IMG/VR virus record: IMGVR_UViG_3300048912_000061
Span: 1 to 39,948 of that record
Length of the DNA stretch: 39,948 nt
Reading direction: 5' to 3' (one strand)
Source of the DNA: a virus
Within the stretch, counting starts at the first letter, position 1. Every line of letters starts with the position of its first letter. A model generated the notes under the pieces. The model searched no databases, had not been told where the DNA came from, and saw nothing but the letters and a program-made list of their open reading frames with translations. Of this stretch, positions 3,236-35,572 are shown piece after piece. Made by a program: the position numbers and the translations under genes.

Positions 3236-3800
3236 TCGCGTCGGCTGCAGCCTTCACCGCGTCGTAGGAGCGGACGCAGGCGTCAAGCCGGTCAATGGCT
3301 TCGTTCCGCGTAGATCGGAGCCATTCAAGATTTGCTGCAACTGTTCCGTCGAGATCCGCGAGAGCGGCGGCTGGGTGATCCACGGTTCCAGCGGGTCCAC
3401 CTTCAATCGATCGGACTGGATCAGAACCTGCCTGGTCGGCTGCTCGGACAAGGACTTGCAGCCGCTGACGGCCAACAGCAAGGTCAGATTGAAGGCGAGC
3501 AGAATCAGCTTTTTCATGGTCAAGCTCCTGTTGGATAGCGATGAGTCTGGCGCGCGCGACGGCAAGATCCGCCTGCGCGGCGGCCACCAGACGATTGAGA
3601 CGATTGCGCTCGTCTTGCGCGGCGCGGGACAGCTCCGCGTCCTCTGCTGCGTGGCGTGCGTCGGAGAGCGATTCCCCGTGGTGGATCAAGTGAACGCTGT
3701 AGGCGTAGAAAGCACCGACTGTGGTGGCGGCCAGCAGCGCGGCGAGCACCCAGCGAGGCGGGATGAGGCTGAACGGGTTCATCCTTGCGGCCCCTTCCAC
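3207..3800 (-). CDS. Rz: i-spanin (Rz-like): N-terminal transmembrane helix plus a long coiled coil
   Basis: MNPFSLIPPRWVLAALLAATTVGAFYAY is followed by Ala/Arg/Gln-rich helical sequence. It is the last gene of the holin-endolysin cassette and hosts an embedded lipoprotein ORF. An alternative start is ATG 3782. Confidence 0.8.
   Translation of the reverse strand: MEGAARMNPFSLIPPRWVLAALLAATTVGAFYAYSVHLIHHGESLSDARHAAEDAELSRAAQDERNRLNRLVAAAQADLAVARARLIAIQQELDHEKADSARLQSDLAVGRQRLQVLVRAADQAGSDPVRSIEGGPAGTVDHPAAALADLDGTVAANLEWLRSTRNEAIDRLDACVRSYDAVKAAADAISAAPPAQQ
3254..3517 (-). CDS. Rz1: o-spanin (Rz1-like) lipoprotein, entirely embedded in Rz in another frame
   Basis: Internal ATG 3517 of track ORF 3254..3565 gives MKKLILLAFNLTLLLAVSGC, with lipobox LAVSGC. 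The mature part is Pro-rich. The position is the classic embedded one inside the i-spanin gene. Confidence 0.8.
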   Translation of the reverse strand: MKKLILLAFNLTLLLAVSGCKSLSEQPTRQVLIQSDRLKVDPLEPWITQPPLSRISTEQLQQILNGSDLRGTKPLTGLTPASAPTTR

Positions 3801-15467: not shown

Positions 15468-16679
15468 TTACTCGGTGATGCGGCAGGCGTGGTCGTTGCG
15501 CACGGTGGCGAAGCCGTACAGCACGTCGATACGGGTGGACTCGGTATCGGTCTGGCCGTTACCGAAGGTCATCACGCGCACCGAGAAGCCGTTCACCGAG
15601 GCGGTGTAGCCCTCGCACGAGGCCAGGATCGGCAGCGGTGCGAACGCGGCCGTGAAGGCGTTCTTGTGGAACGCCAGGTGCTGGCGGTAGCCGGTCGAGG
15701 CCGAGCCGGTGATGGACGCCGAGGCGCCGTTGGCCGGCAGAGCCGAGACGGTACCGACGACCGAGGACGACGAGACCGACAGGGCCGGGTAGATGCTGAT
15801 CGAGCCCGTGGCGCCGCCGGCGGTGAAGTCCGCAGTGACGACGAACTGGCGCAGCTTGCCATTCGAGACGCCCAGGATCGGGTGCACGGCGAACACGTTC
15901 GGGATCGTGAAGGTGGTGCCCTTCAGGATCGTCCAGCCGCCGGTCAGGCCGCCGATGTTCAGCGTGGAGCCGGTCTGGCCCGCACCGTTGATCGTGAAGC
16001 CGGTCGCGGTGCCGTTCACGAAGAACGGCAGCGACTGGTTCTCGAACATATCGAAGCCCTGGGCCTTGGTGATGTAGCCCTGCAGCATGGACTTGCTCAC
16101 GGTGTCGCTCGGGTTCTGCTGGTTCTTGATCGAGTCCGCCAGTTCGTTGCTCGCGTCGGAGCTGAGCAGAACGGTGCGGTCATCTTCCGGCGCCATGAAG
16201 CGCTCCAGCACGCCGCGCGCCTGGCCGTAGGTCTTGAAGGTGTTCGGGACGGTGCCCGGTGCGCCCACGACGTTCGGCACGGACAGCACCGCGCGTTGGA
16301 TCAGGTCCGACTGCACCACCGAGCCCAGCGAGTTGATGGCCGGCTTCAGGAAGCGGTCGCGGAACTCGGTGATCGACAGCGCCTTCTCCTTGGCGGTGAA
16401 GGTCAGCGGCACGTGCTTCTGGGTGGCCAGCTGCAGGCGAACCTTGGCTTCGGCCATGTCCGGAGCGCTGCCGCCGCCGGCGAAGTTCGTGCCGTCGAAC
16501 ACGGTCGGGACCGGCGGGATGCCGATGTCCACGAAGTCGCCCTTCTTGTATCCGTTGGGCGAGTCCTTGAACTCGCTCTCGCGGCCGCGGTTGATGTTGG
16601 AGAGGAAGTTCATTTCCTCGGACAGCATGGCCGCAGCTTCGCGGGCCAGCATTTGGTGGGTCAGGATGGTGTTTGCCAT
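15468..16679 (-). CDS. Major capsid protein, P22 coat-like
   Basis: MANTILTHQMLAREAAAMLSEEMNFLSNINRGRESEFK... is the P22-coat-family N-terminus. It is 403 aa, follows the scaffold gene, and has the highest GC3 in the window (about 90% by hand count). Confidence 0.9.
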   Translation of the reverse strand: MANTILTHQMLAREAAAMLSEEMNFLSNINRGRESEFKDSPNGYKKGDFVDIGIPPVPTVFDGTNFAGGGSAPDMAEAKVRLQLATQKHVPLTFTAKEKALSITEFRDRFLKPAINSLGSVVQSDLIQRAVLSVPNVVGAPGTVPNTFKTYGQARGVLERFMAPEDDRTVLLSSDASNELADSIKNQQNPSDTVSKSMLQGYITKAQGFDMFENQSLPFFVNGTATGFTINGAGQTGSTLNIGGLTGGWTILKGTTFTIPNVFAVHPILGVSNGKLRQFVVTADFTAGGATGSISIYPALSVSSSSVVGTVSALPANGASASITGSASTGYRQHLAFHKNAFTAAFAPLPILASCEGYTASVNGFSVRVMTFGNGQTDTESTRIDVLYGFATVRNDHACRITE

Positions 16680-30240: not shown

Positions 30241-30462
30241 TCAGGATGAAATGGCGCTCGGGGCTTGGCCGAACACGTCGGGGTTGAGCTCGTAGACCGT
30301 GACCTGGCCGTCCAGCTTCTCCACCAGATCACGGCAACGCGGTGCAGGCACGAGACCTTTGGCAGCCCACTTCTGGACGGCCTGAGGCTTCAGGCCCAGC
30401 AGATCACCGAGGGCGGTTTGACTGCCAGCGATGCGGATTGCTTTTGCGATACCGGTTTCCAT
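30241..30462 (-). CDS. cro: Cro-like HTH repressor (YdaS/Cro family)
   Basis: METGIAKAIRIAGSQTALGDLLGLKPQAVQKWAAKGLVPAPRCRDLVEKLDGQVTVYELNPDVF. It is divergent from the cI-like gene across the operator region. Confidence 0.8.
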   Translation of the reverse strand: METGIAKAIRIAGSQTALGDLLGLKPQAVQKWAAKGLVPAPRCRDLVEKLDGQVTVYELNPDVFGQAPSAISS

Positions 30463-30484
30463 GTGGTCGAGGGGGTTGGTTAAT

Positions 30485-30501
30485 TACAACCGTAGGTTAC
30501 A
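30485..30501. promoter_or_regulatory. Operator-like site OR-a (TACAACCGTAGGTTACA)
   Basis: It is a near-palindrome of the form TACAACC-N3-GGTTGTA and covers the proposed PR -10. The same element, inverted, recurs at 32427-32443. Confidence 0.5.
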
Positions 30502-30522
30502 TCATGGCAGGCTCAACTACAA
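30494..30522 (-). promoter_or_regulatory. Candidate PR (cro promoter): -35 TTGTAG, 17-nt spacer, -10 TAACCT
   Basis: Read on the minus strand, TTGTAG is at 30522-30517 and TAACCT at 30499-30494. The same -10 hexamer and spacing are seen at the candidate PL. An alternative -10, TGTAAT, lies at 30488-30483. Confidence 0.4.
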
Positions 30523-30542
30523 CTATTTTTTGCAGTGACCTT

Positions 30543-30559
30543 TACAACCGGAGCTTGTA
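30543..30559. promoter_or_regulatory. Operator-like site OR-c (TACAACCGGAGCTTGTA)
   Basis: It has one mismatch to a perfect TACAACC-N3-GGTTGTA palindrome and lies 11 nt upstream of the cI start. An extra half-site AACTACAAC at 30515-30523 overlaps the PR -35. Confidence 0.5.
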
Positions 30560-30569
30560 CCATCCGCGC

Positions 30570-31289
30570 ATGGAAAATATGGCAACCAGGCTGACCCGCC
30601 TGCTCGACATCAAAAATGGGGGCAATCAGTCCGAATTGGCGCGCTTCTGCGGGGTCACGCCGCAGGCCGTGCAGAAATGGATTGCCGGCCAGACCGAGCC
30701 GCGCGGCGCAAACTTAGAGCGCGCCGCCGAGTTCCTCGGGGTCTCGCAGAGTGAGTTGAAATTCGGTACTGCTGTTGCGCCGAGCCAACGGGTTGAGGCC
30801 GGGCCGTTCTTCCTGGCTGAGCCGACAGACTACGCCTACGGGATGAGCGTTGCCGAAGGCGAGGGCAACAGCATCCAGATTCGCAAGGTGAAGCTGCGGC
30901 TGCGCGCCGGCTACCCGGGCTTCCAGACCGAGCCGGATATGGCCGGCGCCGGCGAGGTGTCCGTGCCGCGCGAACTGATCGCGGCCCTGCGCCTGGACCC
31001 GGCGAACCTGCTGGCCATGGCGGTGCGCGGCGACAGCATGGAGCCGATGATGTTCGAGGACGACGTGGTGATCATCGACAAGTCGGATACCAAGCCGATC
31101 AGCCGCGAGCTGTACGCGGTCAACTTCGACGGTGAGCCGCTTATCAAGCAGCTGCTGTACCGCGGCGGCCAGTGGTACCTCCACTCGCTGAATGGAGAAT
31201 ACGAGGACACCAACGTGCGCAGCGGGCAGACCAGCATCGTGGGCCGTGTGGTCATCCAGCCAACGCGCGTGCTGACCGGCCGCCTGTAG
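30570..31289 (+). CDS. cI: cI-type repressor: XRE HTH plus S24 (LexA-like) autopeptidase domain
   Basis: The HTH is NQSELARFCGVTPQAVQKWIAGQ. An Ala-Gly site occurs in LRLRAGYPG. The Ser motif is GDSMEP and the Lys lies in PLIKQL. The start is ATG 30570 or 30579. The 76-codon track extension would cover cro and the operators. Confidence 0.9.
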   Translation: MENMATRLTRLLDIKNGGNQSELARFCGVTPQAVQKWIAGQTEPRGANLERAAEFLGVSQSELKFGTAVAPSQRVEAGPFFLAEPTDYAYGMSVAEGEGNSIQIRKVKLRLRAGYPGFQTEPDMAGAGEVSVPRELIAALRLDPANLLAMAVRGDSMEPMMFEDDVVIIDKSDTKPISRELYAVNFDGEPLIKQLLYRGGQWYLHSLNGEYEDTNVRSGQTSIVGRVVIQPTRVLTGRL

Positions 31290-32340: not shown

Positions 32341-32357
32341 AGCGATCCTGACGATCG

Positions 32358-32383
32358 GCCCCGCCGAGGTGGGGCTTTTTTTT
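32358..32383 (+). terminator. Intrinsic terminator of the cI-orf115-lipoprotein operon (timm analogue)
   Basis: GCCCC(32358-32362)-gccgaggt-GGGGC(32371-32375) is followed by T8 (32376-32383). Confidence 0.8.
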
Positions 32384-32472: not shown

Positions 32473-32859
32473 ATGACCCGCCTCGAACACATCACCCTTC
32501 CGGCCCTTGCCTTCGAAGCCGTCTTCGCCTCGGCCGGCTACCAGATGACCGCCGCGCGCGTGTCCCTGGAGTGCTTCATGCCCGCCAGCCCGAGCAACAA
32601 GCCGCTGCGCGTGGTGCTGGAGCACGACACCGAGTTCAAGGGCGTGCCGACGCTGGTGGTGCCACGCAGCCGCGCCGTGCTGGACTGCGAGCGCCCGAAG
32701 ATCACGCTGCCGTCTGCCTTCGATGTGACCGAGCTGGTGGACATCGAGCAGGTGACCGAGCTGGTGCGCGAGTGGCGCGCGGACAAGGCCGAGGACGAGC
32801 TGCACATGCTGGCGCGGCGCGCGGGCCTCGATATCTCGTTTGCCAAGGTGATGGCATGA
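32473..32859 (+). CDS. First early-left gene, hypothetical (128 aa)
   Basis: Track ORF with AGGAG upstream and good GC3. No motif recognised; it is not Arg-rich or N-like. Confidence 0.65.
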   Translation: MTRLEHITLPALAFEAVFASAGYQMTAARVSLECFMPASPSNKPLRVVLEHDTEFKGVPTLVVPRSRAVLDCERPKITLPSAFDVTELVDIEQVTELVREWRADKAEDELHMLARRAGLDISFAKVMA

Positions 32860-33047
32860 GCTGCCCGGTCTGCGCCGATACCGGCTCGATCCTCAAGACC
32901 CTATACGCCGACAAGGACTGCGTTCACTGCGAGGTCGCCATTGAGCGCGTCGAGCTGGAGCAGTGGCTGTCCGCCGAACACATCAAGGTCGACCCGGCGG
33001 AAGCCTGGCTGATCTACCGGCGCGGCGCCGAGAAGGTGACCGCCTGA
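32856..33047 (+). CDS. Small zinc-ribbon protein (63 aa): CPVC...CVHC
   Basis: ATG 32856 overlaps the upstream stop (ATGA). The sequence is MSCPVCADTGSILKTLYADKDCVHCEVAIERVELEQW.... It is the tail of track ORF 32571..33047. Confidence 0.6.
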   Translation: MSCPVCADTGSILKTLYADKDCVHCEVAIERVELEQWLSAEHIKVDPAEAWLIYRRGAEKVTA

Positions 33048-33490
33048 CCCTCGTAAGGGGTCACCACAGGAGGGGCGATTGTGGCTGACGACCGAACGCA
33101 TGTGTCTAGTCAACGCGTGCGGCAGTCGCTCCTCCTGTGGTGAATGCGCAGGCTGATGCGCGTGGGCTGACCACCCTGCTACTCACTTTGTGGCGTACAG
33201 GTCAATAAGGCAGGAAAGCCAGAGATCAGCACTGGCCCCCACAGGCGCCGTAAGGCGAGCAAGGCAGCGAGGCACGCTTAAAAAGCCCGAGTCGGTGAGA
33301 TGCCGACGCCAACCGGGAGCGGCCTGACCGCGAATAAGGGCGCGGGAAGGTGTGGAGCCATGCACCGCAGGCCGTTCCCGGTTGGCCGGGCTGATCGAGG
33401 GTTAGCTCCTCGAAATCCCCTTCAGCCGCATTACAACGCCGAGGCTTCAATTCAGCGGCCCGGCCAACACCATAACGATACGGAGAACAG
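33048..33490 (+). ncRNA. ORF-free, hairpin-rich 440-nt block inside the early-left operon (candidate structured RNA or processing/regulatory region)
   Basis: No protein-like ORF on either strand, with stops in all plus frames. The block is lower in GC than its flanks. A 21-bp stem pairs 33062-33082 with 33122-33142, and at least eight further 4-5 bp hairpins are present, including a GUAA tetraloop at 33246-33257. Confidence 0.4.
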
Positions 33491-33604
33491 ATGATCCGCT
33501 ACATCGCCCGCCAGCCCGGCAAGCGCCACTGGCTCAACGTCACCCCGGCCTATGTCGAGGCCTTCAAGGCTGCAGGCTTCATCGTGCGCGAGGTGCGGCT
33601 GTGA
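33491..33604 (+). CDS. Small ORF, 37 aa (MIRYIARQPGKRHWLNVTPAYVEAFKAAGFIVREVRL), not in the track
   Basis: GGAG lies 6 nt upstream of ATG 33491. Its stop overlaps the GTG start of the next gene (GTGA). Confidence 0.45.
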   Translation: MIRYIARQPGKRHWLNVTPAYVEAFKAAGFIVREVRL

Positions 33605-33840
33605 GCGCGCGCGACAACGGCGGGGCGGCGTTCCCCGATCCTGGCCGCGCCCAGTCCGCGAAGCAGCGCGAGGTGTTGACCGATACCGGCATGACGCTGC
33701 GCGACTACTTCGCGGCGGCGGCGCTGCAAGGTTTTATCGCCTGCCACTCTGGCATGGACGTGTGCACGCCTGATCCGCAACAAGCAGCAGGCCGTGCTTA
33801 TGAATATGCAGACGCCATGCTCGCGGAGCGTGCCAAGTGA
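33601..33840 (+). CDS. Hypothetical conserved-looking phage protein (79 aa)
   Basis: Track ORF. ...GMTLRDYFAAAALQGFIA...AAGRAYEYADAMLAERAK is a pattern often seen in small phage early proteins (from memory). Confidence 0.65.
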   Translation: MSARDNGGAAFPDPGRAQSAKQREVLTDTGMTLRDYFAAAALQGFIACHSGMDVCTPDPQQAAGRAYEYADAMLAERAK

Positions 33841-34067: not shown

Positions 34068-35066
34068 ATGAGCAACAGTAACGCCCTCGCCATCGTCACC
34101 AAGGACATTCAGGAGGTGCGCGACGATTTCTCGCGCGTCCTGGCTGACCGCTCGATCTCGTTTGAGCGCGAGGCCGGGTTCGCCATCCAGGTCCTGCAGA
34201 ACAACGACTACGCGCTCAGCGTGGCGATGAAGGACCGCATGTCAGTGATGAACGCGGTGAAGAATATTGCGGCCATCGGCATCAGCCTGAACCCGGCGCG
34301 CAAGCAGGCCTATCTGGTGCCGCGCGGCGGGCGCATCTGCTTGGACATCAGCTACATCGGGCTGATCGACATCGCGGTGGCTTCGGGCTCCGTGGTGTGG
34401 GCTCAGGCCGAGGTGGTGCGCGAGAACGACGGCTTCACGCTGAACGGTCTGGACCAGGCGCCCACGCACAACTTCAACCCGTTCGGCAAGGACCGCGGCG
34501 ACCTCGTGGGCGCGTACTGCGTGGCCAAGCTGCACAACGGCGACTTCCTGACCACCACGATGTCGATCGATGACATCTTCTCGATCCGCAACCGGTCCGA
34601 GTCGTGGAAGAAGAAAAGCGGACCGTGGGCGACCGATGAGGGCGAGATGGTCAAGAAGACCGTCATCAAGCGCGCCTACAAGCTCTGGCCGAAGACCGAG
34701 CGCATGGACGATGCGATGCGCCAGCTCAACGACGAGAACGGCGAAGGGCTGGCCGCTGACGTGCCGCCGGACTGGGTGGACGTGGCGCCGATGATCGCCG
34801 AGGCGATGGCGACTCGCACCGACGCCGAGGCCTTGGCCTACTGGCGGCAGAACAACGGCCGCCTGGCCAAGCAGCCTGCCGACCACAAGAAGTTGAAGGA
34901 AGCGGTTGCATCGCACCGGGCCGCGCTGCGCGACCAGCAGGCCGCCGACGACGAGCGCACCATCGATATGCCGCCGCCGGCCGCCGCTGAGCCGCCGCCG
35001 ATCGACACCACGGGCATGACCGCCGAGGAGGCCGACTACCAGCGCAGCATGCAGGGGGGGGTGTGA
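34068..35066 (+). CDS. recT: RecT-family single-strand annealing protein
   Basis: ...AAIGISLNPARKQAYLVPRGGRICLDISYIGLIDIAVASGSV...VGAYCVAKL...EMVKKTVIKRAYKLWP is the RecT pattern. It is followed, after the HNH insert, by a YqaJ-type exonuclease. Confidence 0.9.
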   Translation: MSNSNALAIVTKDIQEVRDDFSRVLADRSISFEREAGFAIQVLQNNDYALSVAMKDRMSVMNAVKNIAAIGISLNPARKQAYLVPRGGRICLDISYIGLIDIAVASGSVVWAQAEVVRENDGFTLNGLDQAPTHNFNPFGKDRGDLVGAYCVAKLHNGDFLTTTMSIDDIFSIRNRSESWKKKSGPWATDEGEMVKKTVIKRAYKLWPKTERMDDAMRQLNDENGEGLAADVPPDWVDVAPMIAEAMATRTDAEALAYWRQNNGRLAKQPADHKKLKEAVASHRAALRDQQAADDERTIDMPPPAAAEPPPIDTTGMTAEEADYQRSMQGGV

Positions 35067-35572
35067 TTCGCCACCCGGCCCTCACGGTTCAGGAGATCGA
35101 GCAGCGACTGCAGGTCGATCTTGCCACCGGTGTCTGCGTCTGGCGCGACGCCACGAAGCATCATCGTCCTTTGGTTGGGAAGGTGGCTGGCCACGCTCGA
35201 CCAAACCACTCCGGCAAATGCTACTGGATCATCAAAATAAATGGGATTCCGTACCGGCGTGCGCAGATCGTTTTGACCATCGCAACCGGGCGGTGGCCCA
35301 CGGACACCGTCGATCACATCGATGGCGACTCGCTGAACGACTGCGCGGCCAATCTCCGGCACGCGACCATCATGCAAAACGCCTGGAATCACAAGCGGCG
35401 CGCCAAGACCGCTTCCACTCCAATGGGCGTTCGGATGCTTCCGTCTGGGCGGTATCAAGTCCGCATTGCGGTGAACAAGAAGCAAATTCATGTCGGGACT
35501 TTTTCAACAGTTGAGGCCGCAAGCGCTGCCTACCAACAAGCTCGAAAGGAGAACTACGGTGCGTTTTGTTGA
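35063..35572 (+). CDS. Free-standing HNH homing endonuclease with an AP2-type DNA-binding domain
   Basis: The HNH_3 pattern is VDHIDGDSLNDCAANLRHATIMQNAWN. The AP2-like part is GVRMLPSGRYQVRIAVNKKQIHVGTFSTVEAASAAYQQA. The gene is locally AT-richer (atcaaaataaatggg). GTG 35063 overlaps the recT stop, and the 3-prime end overlaps the exonuclease start. Confidence 0.85.
   Translation: MIRHPALTVQEIEQRLQVDLATGVCVWRDATKHHRPLVGKVAGHARPNHSGKCYWIIKINGIPYRRAQIVLTIATGRWPTDTVDHIDGDSLNDCAANLRHATIMQNAWNHKRRAKTASTPMGVRMLPSGRYQVRIAVNKKQIHVGTFSTVEAASAAYQQARKENYGAFC

Follow-up and report, generated by a model that had tools for sequence, protein, structure and literature searches.

What does a phage gain from a stretch of DNA among its early genes that encodes no protein? 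The question is raised by the block at positions 33048-33490 on the plus strand of the virus record IMGVR_UViG_3300048912_000061, which was analysed over 39,948 nucleotides (nt; this whole stretch is called the window, and all coordinates are positions in it unless another record or locus is named). The block lies between a 63-codon open reading frame (ORF, 32856-33047) and a 37-codon ORF (33491-33604), both also on the plus strand. An earlier reading made from the letters alone (the sequence-only reading) had proposed that these 440 nt are a single structured RNA. It is now virtually certain that positions 33134-33245 encode a structured RNA with a defined fold, and that this RNA belongs to a family present in many phages. 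The full proposal, which adds to family and fold the excision of the RNA from its transcript and its action in trans, is put forward as plausible rather than probable.

The absence of a gene from the block can be upheld. The ORFs inside it are 45-74 amino acids (aa) long, with nothing longer, and their GC content is flat over the three codon positions (0.59-0.67); in ten neighbouring genes, the GC content is 0.68-0.93 at the third codon position (GC3) and 0.43-0.57 at the second. A 64-aa ORF at 33300-33494, which overlaps the next start codon as ATGA, was considered as coding and rejected for its flat GC3. When genes were called independently on a metagenomic contig of identical sequence, the same 444 nt again came out empty. 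The block ends at a Shine-Dalgarno sequence, as had been noticed, with GGAG preceding the ATG at 33491, while the lower GC content ascribed to it is marginal only (0.63-0.65, compared with 0.64-0.69 nearby). The minimum free energy (MFE) of the whole block is -219.9 kcal/mol. Against dinucleotide shuffles, which underlie all folding z-scores given here, this corresponds to z = -5.7 on the plus strand and -3.8 on the minus strand, and the interval 33040-33250 reaches z = -4.7. A fold stronger than that of shuffled sequences and the lack of a coding signal bear out the view of a structured non-coding RNA on the plus strand.

All the hairpins listed in the sequence-only reading are found where it placed them, among them GACCC/GGGTC over the upstream stop codon (33046-33062), GCGCA/TGCGC (33146-33161), GCCAG/CTGGC (33218-33236) and CGCC-GUAA-GGCG (33246-33257). 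The second and third of these had been taken as independent. They are instead the two arms, hairpins A and B, of one three-way junction of about 112 nt with kissing loops, in which hairpin B runs into the 3' strand of the closing stem P1 with zero junction nucleotides (see the table). A covariance model of this core, R1, matches the window once, at 33133-33246 on the plus strand (81.7 bits, E = 5e-21), with a seed that included the window sequence; independent members of the family score 58-93 bits. The insert of the window resembles that of locus L117, with a compensatory change in the first insert hairpin.

Features of the block and its upstream edge (positions in the window)
Feature	Positions	Strand	Description
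Hairpin hp0	33046-33062	+	GACCC UCGUAAG GGGUC; covers the stop codon that ends the 63-aa ORF; in the MFE structure
Rod 1	33062-33142	+	20-base-pair (bp) helix 33062-33081/33123-33142 (2 G-U) with a 41-nt apical part
Conserved core	33134-33245	+	About 112 nt; three-way junction; covariance model R1
P1	33134-33142/33237-33245	+	Closing stem of the core
AAU linker	33143-33145	+	Between the P1 5' strand and hairpin A
Hairpin A	33146-33161	+	5-bp stem; loop GGCUGA at 33151-33156
Variable insert	33162-33215	+	Two hairpins, 33162-33174 and 33175-33214
AA	33216-33217	+	Ahead of hairpin B
Hairpin B	33218-33236	+	5-bp stem; loop AGAUCAGCA at 33223-33231
Kissing pairing	33152-33156 with 33226-33230	+	GCUGA/UCAGC, 5 bp; loops complementary and almost invariant in the family
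Spacer	33246-33307	+	Hairpins CGCC-GUAA-GGCG (33246-33257) and GUCGG..CCGAC (33291-33307)
Rod 2	33309-33385	+	18-bp helix 33309-33326/33368-33385 (1 G-U) with a branched apex; in the MFE and centroid structures
3' structured tail	33386-33482	+	CGAGG/CCUCG hairpin (33396-33412), GGCUGA (33389-33394) and two UCAGC; branched

Relatives were sought among 80 viral loci fetched by means of the 79-aa protein encoded downstream of the block. Two short islands, AAUGCGCAGGCUGAUGCGC and AAGCCNGAGAUCAGCACNGGCC, are common to phages that are otherwise unrelated. The exact 21-nt pattern of the second island, which is hairpin B, occurs in at least 119 IMG/VR contigs and in 102 stretches of a species-representative genome set; about 30 of the genome matches are coincidences within protein genes and were rejected as non-members. 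P1, hairpin A and hairpin B are present together in 107 distinct instances. Members share one architecture, in which a 5' strand of variable sequence is followed by AAU, hairpin A, an insert of 10-165 nt, AA, hairpin B and the complement that completes P1. The core measures 68-230 nt, the minimal member of 68 nt being of the L149 type. A blastn search with the block as query, which covered 50,697 phage records in modes for near and for distant relatives, gave no match, because only short islands are conserved. Since relatives and covariation are restricted to 33046-33245, the 440 nt cannot be regarded as a single element. A decayed pseudogene, the case that was to overturn the idea of an RNA, is excluded, as related phages have the same RNA at this place and no protein gene.

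Covariation in related phages had been named in advance as one way to judge the candidate, and it speaks for all three stems (P1 and those of hairpins A and B) as well as for the pairing between the loops. When 70 distinct members are aligned without their inserts, 89% of the cells pair, compared with 28-43% in controls with slid partners, and none of 500 shuffles reaches the observed value. Each of the seven inner pairs of P1 is paired in 90-100% of the sequences and is represented by three to six pair types, and changes on both sides are seen at all five pairs of hairpin A. Given that neither P1 nor hairpin A was used in finding the sequences, this evidence is independent. The collecting pattern did fix loop B, and the metagenomes were therefore scanned for hairpin A with a base other than U at U24, which is the third position of the kissing helix and the fourth base of loop A. 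Eight true members, recognised by P1 and hairpin B, were obtained; all have the loop A sequence GGCCGA, and all eight have a compensating G in loop B, which reads UCGGC or UCGGU. In a count of 25 sequences the U24 pair is UA in 20 and CG in five, with none unpaired, and the adjacent kissing pair is GC in 18 and GU in six.

The orientation of the element is equally uniform, in that every tRNA gene within 1.5 kb of it is on the same strand (about 18 loci). The tolerance of G-U pairs and the shared direction of the tRNA genes identify the plus strand as the functional one and argue for action at the level of RNA.

The two loop motifs recur in the block. GGCTGA occurs at 33083, 33151, 33165 and 33389, four times where the frequency in the window would predict 0.26, and TCAGC at 33226, 33422 and 33452. 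These copies could make alternative or intermolecular kissing contacts, and the excess of GGCTGA hints at a possible relationship between the second half of the block and the core. The copy at 33083, in the apex of rod 1, is not kept in locus L098.

The family extends well beyond the window. About 65 full-length matches to R1 (42-93 bits) were found in alpha-, beta- and gammaproteobacterial genomes, and 104-169 records of cultured phages match, none of them annotated at the site. The cultured carriers include HK620, HK633, Stx2 phages, many Klebsiella siphoviruses, Erwinia phiEt88, Aeromonas ST4 and the Ackermannviridae UPM 2146 and Magnus, together with N4-like phages that have the rod only. 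A query of the Klebsiella type has a match, at least a partial one, in 101 of 5,426 complete E. coli genomes. Some prophages contain paired copies a few hundred nucleotides apart on the same strand (L274:5117-5575, L293:294-624 and L288:7258-7898), and the second copies differ either in the stem of hairpin B, with compensation (GCAGG/CCUGC), or in loop B, where the changes are compatible with G-U pairing. In Marinospirillum alkaliphilum DSM 21637, a locus of clustered regularly interspaced short palindromic repeats (CRISPR; L208:~3700-3735) has the spacer AGCGCCGAAAGCCGGAGATCAGCACCGGCCAC between repeats GATTCCCCGCAGGTGCGGGGATAAACCGC, and this spacer matches hairpin B and the start of the P1 3' strand of the family. 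In the 160-kb genome of the Klebsiella phage UPM 2146 (L307), some 2.7 kb around the element are free of annotated features (record positions ~88641-91340), and this stretch may hold further RNA genes.

The genes around the element vary from locus to locus, with cI-type repressors upstream, lysis genes downstream, recT or ssb, and tRNAs. In one context, that of the window, a cI-type repressor on the same strand precedes the element (19 loci), and recT, ssb or the family of the 79-aa protein follows it. In a second context it lies in the leader that separates Q from the lysis genes in lambdoid phages, and it is also located inside the tRNA clusters of virulent phages. A tRNA gene begins about 5 nt past P1 in four loci, and about 10 nt past the model match in phiEt88. 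In HK620, the core follows pR'/qut and a first terminator-like hairpin and lies about 50 nt before the annotated terminator tQ. A terminator-like site is found within 110 nt downstream of 36 out of 170 instances, compared with nine out of 170 controls.

Immediately upstream of the core, and partly within it, lies a long hairpin designated rod 1. The 21 bp originally counted become 20 bp with two G-U pairs, unless T33082-G33122 is counted as well. The pair probability of rod 1 is 1.0, and the entire P1 5' strand is contained in its 3' strand. Both rod 1 and hairpin hp0 are preserved in the closest relative, L098, which is 86% identical over 33041-33161: its rod 1 has three consecutive compensatory base-pair changes, and its hp0 reads CACCC..GGGTG, so that the closing pair is changed on both sides. 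In this relative the core leads directly into the next gene. Among 163 family members, 35 have a rod of 16 bp or more that sequesters P1, compared with one to four in controls. The rod state of the window has a free energy of -105.2 kcal/mol and the family P1 state one of -80.6 kcal/mol, which puts the rod about 25 kcal/mol below P1 in the intact window transcript. Without the rod's 5' strand, or with that strand blocked, the MFE structure is the consensus core fold. Near-perfect double-stranded RNA of about 20 bp or more within a transcript would make a candidate RNase III site, and the helices of rod 1 (20 bp) and rod 2 (18 bp) are of this order; an RNase III site was among the roles suggested for the block, and in its geometry the long rod does match an RNase III substrate.

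The rod module (CACAACAGGUAAGAGCAUUG ... CAGUGCUCUUUCCGUUGUG) is also found alone, without a core, at L200:2650-2740, in the upstream regions of L099 and L128, and in the N4-like phages IME11 and S5. In L200, the 3' strand of the rod overlaps a terminator-like hairpin (GUUGUGGCAGCACAAC, then a run of U), an arrangement that resembles an attenuator. The apices of the rods of eight loci (L081, L117, L121, L160, L184, L185, L189 and L192) have T-arm hairpins of the form GGUUCGAnUCC, and the same canonical T-arm hairpin occurs in a variant core at L011:3745-3770. These embedded T-arm hairpins are part of no detected tRNA, a sign that such phage RNAs may reuse modules derived from tRNAs.

Given this arrangement, it is tempting to speculate on how the element might work. 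It would be transcribed within the early-left operon, in the order cI, terminator, two small genes, RNA and recT/exo, and host RNases would excise it from the early-left transcript. A cut by RNase III in the 20-bp rod may release the P1 strand for the tRNA-like fold, and P1 may be processed by RNase P or by 3' trimming, as for the tRNA genes that adjoin many members. Once set free, the RNA, about 110 nt long, would be stable and would act in trans, either on a conserved host component of tRNA metabolism or translation or on a tRNA-targeting defence nuclease. Action on a conserved host factor would account for loops and junctions that are near-invariant from Alpha- to Gammaproteobacteria while the stems covary. 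Action in trans is suggested by this pattern together with the heterogeneous neighbours and the association with tRNA genes, and since the neighbouring genes differ among loci, a gene-specific regulator is not expected. The enrichment of terminators downstream and the placement between terminators in HK620 would be consistent with a discrete RNA.

Several observations weigh against excision followed by action of a tRNA-like RNA in trans. The rod is so stable in the window that P1 may need cleavage in order to form, and an alternative closing helix, 33041-33046/33243-33248, is predicted in place of P1. Maturation by RNase III could not be general, because the rod is present in only about 21% of the members, and terminators follow only a minority of copies. 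As for the likeness to tRNA, ARAGORN found no genes in the window, and Rfam gave no tRNA, tmRNA or relevant match in the block up to E = 10. No conserved 3' CCA was found after P1 in the family, and in the window P1 precedes CGCC. Loop B, with 9 nt, is without a T-loop consensus. Fold, strand, family and contexts apart, the steps of the proposal are what we infer throughout.

One alternative is that the element acts in cis only, as a processing or stability signal that cuts the early-left mRNA into segments of differing half-life, and that the excised RNA has no function; the RNase III sites of T7 and lambda and the punctuation of transcripts by tRNAs would be analogues. The element is indeed intergenic in long operons and in sense orientation, its rods have RNase III geometry, and the tRNA genes that adjoin it are themselves processed. 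A signal of this kind needs shape and no particular sequence, yet at least 20 nucleotides of the loops and junctions are almost invariant over three proteobacterial classes; many copies have no rod, and some phage genomes have two copies close together (L274, L288 and L293). A role confined to cis is thus a serious candidate, if an unlikely one. The mutually exclusive pairings of rod and P1 could also be the two states of a switch, either a riboswitch-like aptamer or a factor-binding antiterminator, in which a ligand or protein bound to the core would select one of them. A three-way junction with kissing loops is known from the purine riboswitches, the element is placed early in operons of the pL and pR' types, terminators are enriched just downstream, and the paralogous rod of L200 overlaps a terminator hairpin. 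However, the class of the downstream gene is inconsistent, the element is present in the tRNA clusters of virulent phages, and a rod or a nearby terminator accompanies only about 21% of the copies. R1 is also silent on HK022, with its known put antiterminator RNAs, and in HK620 the element coexists with Q/qut. A conformational switch is accordingly regarded as improbable.

Trans-translation provides a different kind of explanation, in which the core would be the tRNA-like part of a phage analogue of transfer-messenger RNA (tmRNA), or a decoy for SmpB or another tmRNA partner. In L200, L128, L099, L240 and HK620, the core is preceded, at a distance of about 220-310 nt, by ten-codon ORFs in the late leaders between Q and holin of these enterobacterial phages (L200:2786-2821; L306, which is HK620, AF335538 record positions 15883-15915). 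They encode the tag-like peptides ANDDVVLMAA, ANDDLMLMAA, ANEEMYLAAA and ANEEMYLAVA, with AUAAAU before them and stop codons after them. The differences between the tags of L200 and L240 are all synonymous, Rfam gives weak tmRNA matches to the tag ORFs (E = 0.004), and the loop A sequence GGCUGAU is identical to nucleotides 3-9 of the 5' end of E. coli tmRNA (ssrA). On the other hand, the window has no tag-like ORF and no tmRNA match with ARAGORN or Rfam, and most members are tagless, the tag-like ORFs being confined to enterobacterial relatives. ARAGORN finds no tmRNA in any locus, the tag leaders are without a detectable canonical tRNA-like domain, the core has neither a free CCA end nor a G3-U70 pair, and a tag outside P1 is the wrong topology for a tmRNA. 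A trans-translation module is therefore given little credence. In a related proposal, the element would be a tRNA mimic that engages host translation quality control or tRNA surveillance: in P22-like and lambdoid coliphages such as HK620 it would be the 3' domain of a late-leader RNA, some 600 nt long, that also bears the tag template (ANEEMYLAVA, ANDDVVLMAA) and would be a non-canonical, virus-encoded counterpart or antagonist of tmRNA, and standing alone, as here, it would be a decoy against tRNA-targeting nucleases. This too is doubtful, and is offered as speculation. An element that works as DNA, be it a second origin, a recombination or packaging site, or hairpins of single-stranded DNA, had been suggested in part by the sequence-only reading, and a gene-free, hairpin-dense stretch in a region of recombination and replication would suit it. 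The sequence is also targeted by a CRISPR spacer, though this is uninformative on function. A G-U pair, which is tolerated on one strand, is an A-C mismatch on the other; the fold is stronger on the plus strand, the orientation is always that of the neighbouring tRNA genes, covariation maintains pairing and not sequence, and there are neither iterons nor an AT-rich unwinding region. This makes a function in DNA the most improbable of the explanations. The reading preferred here is the excised, trans-acting RNA, with the reservations stated above.

The second half of the block (33246-33490) is also strongly folded, with z = -5.5 on the plus strand and -2.95 on the minus strand. For the spacer at 33246-33307 no relatives were found, and it is missing from L098. 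The hairpin CCCGG-UUGG-CCGGG that had been listed further downstream is present, but the longer rod 2, 18 bp at 33309-33326/33368-33385, competes with it and is preferred in the MFE structure. R1 does not recognise rod 2 (9.4 bits, E = 1.4), and its exact 5' strand has no match in IMG/VR. The 3' tail stops at the Shine-Dalgarno sequence of the 37-codon ORF; a 17-nt probe from the tail, GGCCGGGCTGATCGAGG, has 86 matches in IMG/VR, all in unrelated coding sequence for the peptide AGLIE. A second, diverged copy of the core at 33380-33470 was considered and is unsupported by R1. The second half, whose structure has thermodynamic support only, is probably a spacer specific to this lineage.

The gene order around the block is the layout of the lambdoid cI and early-left region. 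On the plus strand, a CI-type repressor (helix-turn-helix and S24 peptidase domains, 30342-31289) is followed by two small genes, a strong terminator-like site at 32357-32376, two orphan genes, the block, the 79-aa protein of the common phage family phrog_2201, RecT, an HNH endonuclease and a YqaJ exonuclease. The two orphan genes upstream of the block (32473-33047) encode a protein of 128 aa and a Cys-rich one of 63 aa (CPVC...CVHC), for both of which the sole match in a collection of 5.8 billion proteins is the identical contig. The gene inserted between recT and the exonuclease (35063-35572) is HNH/AP2 homing-endonuclease-like and overlaps at its 3' end with the beginning (35490) of the exonuclease ORF.

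The family is unannotated and apparently undescribed, and appears to be new as a family of phage tRNA-like structured RNAs. In line with the view that the block represents no named RNA family, Rfam 15 found no match anywhere in the window at the gathering score, and a search of 32800-33700 at E up to 10 returned only chance matches (a miRNA, a fragment of FMN and DUF3800-IV). The full-text literature, as far as it was accessible, contained no description of the family; a catalogue of 8,495 candidate RNAs from IMG/VR (PMC10690425) may include it.

Near-invariant loops and a tRNA-like fold are shared by hundreds of phages whose hosts are Alpha-, Beta- and Gammaproteobacteria. Temperate as well as virulent phages are among them, and they include model and medically relevant ones such as HK620, Stx2-converting phages and phages of Klebsiella. 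Such conservation usually signals contact with a universal host machine. The carrier phages are genetically tractable, and function is thus directly testable. For annotators, the family is a reason against calling spurious 'hypothetical proteins' over these regions, and the linked tmRNA-like tag templates hint at a possible manipulation of trans-translation by phages.

Several known RNAs invite comparison with the family. The lambda 6S and StxS leader RNAs have a similar genomic position. The put RNA of HK022 is likewise a cis-encoded structured RNA, of about 70 nt, that lies past early phage promoters and needs no dedicated protein. Its architecture differs, since its two stem-loops form a V shape with a triplex and are not closed by a P1 (PMC9378689), and membership is rejected, as R1 has no match at E up to 0.1 in HK022 20000-40751. 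ROOL and GOLLD are also borne by phages and prophages, often near tRNA genes, and have strong covariation; they measure 500-800 nt and are in Rfam, whereas the core of the present family measures 68-230 nt and has another fold. The prophage small RNA svsR was rejected as a relative, since it is merely a hairpin at the 3' end of cI.

The C4 RNA of P1 and P7 (RF01695) and the CI RNA of P4 come closer. Both are small and structured, are embedded in a phage operon leader close to the immunity region, and have a closing stem and two hairpins with conserved loops. C4 and CI RNAs are released by RNase P. However, their loops pair with mRNA targets, whereas those of the family pair with each other, and there is no sequence similarity. 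Matches to C4, CI or isrK (RF01695, RF01394) are absent from the window; Rfam does find a genuine C4 and isrK in L184, away from the element. In purine riboswitches, similar to the family, P1 closes two hairpins whose loops pair, and the junction nucleotides are conserved. In contrast to them, the family has a long insert that enters the junction and no consistent regulated gene, and it also occurs inside tRNA clusters. There is no sequence similarity or Rfam match to purine riboswitches; the one riboswitch hit of Rfam is the chance-level fragment of FMN (18.7 bits, compared with a gathering score of 66).

The nearest fold is that of tRNA, with which the tRNA-like structures of viruses, the tRNA-like domain of the Y RNA YrlA and mascRNA are grouped. 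Hairpin A corresponds in position to the D arm, the insert to the anticodon arm, and the loop-loop contact to the elbow; a 3-nt linker leads to the first hairpin, and the first and last loops are in contact. The modal length of P1 is 7 bp, with 90% pairing at the seventh pair but 69% at the eighth, so that P1 and hairpin B together form a 7-bp stem continuous with a 5-bp stem, as in the 12-bp acceptor/T minihelix. The element adjoins tRNA genes in the same orientation and some variants have true T arms; in variant L403, a T-arm-like hairpin stands in the place of hairpin B. In contrast to tRNA, the family has no anticodon arm, no T- or D-loop consensus and no CCA, and it escapes both ARAGORN and Rfam; with E up to 1, the members L149 and L403 likewise had no Rfam match. 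Its loops are joined by five Watson-Crick pairs and not by the contacts of G18 and G19 with psi55 and C56. The element is yet another RNA that shares the topology and the helix arithmetic of tRNA, yet is not a tRNA.

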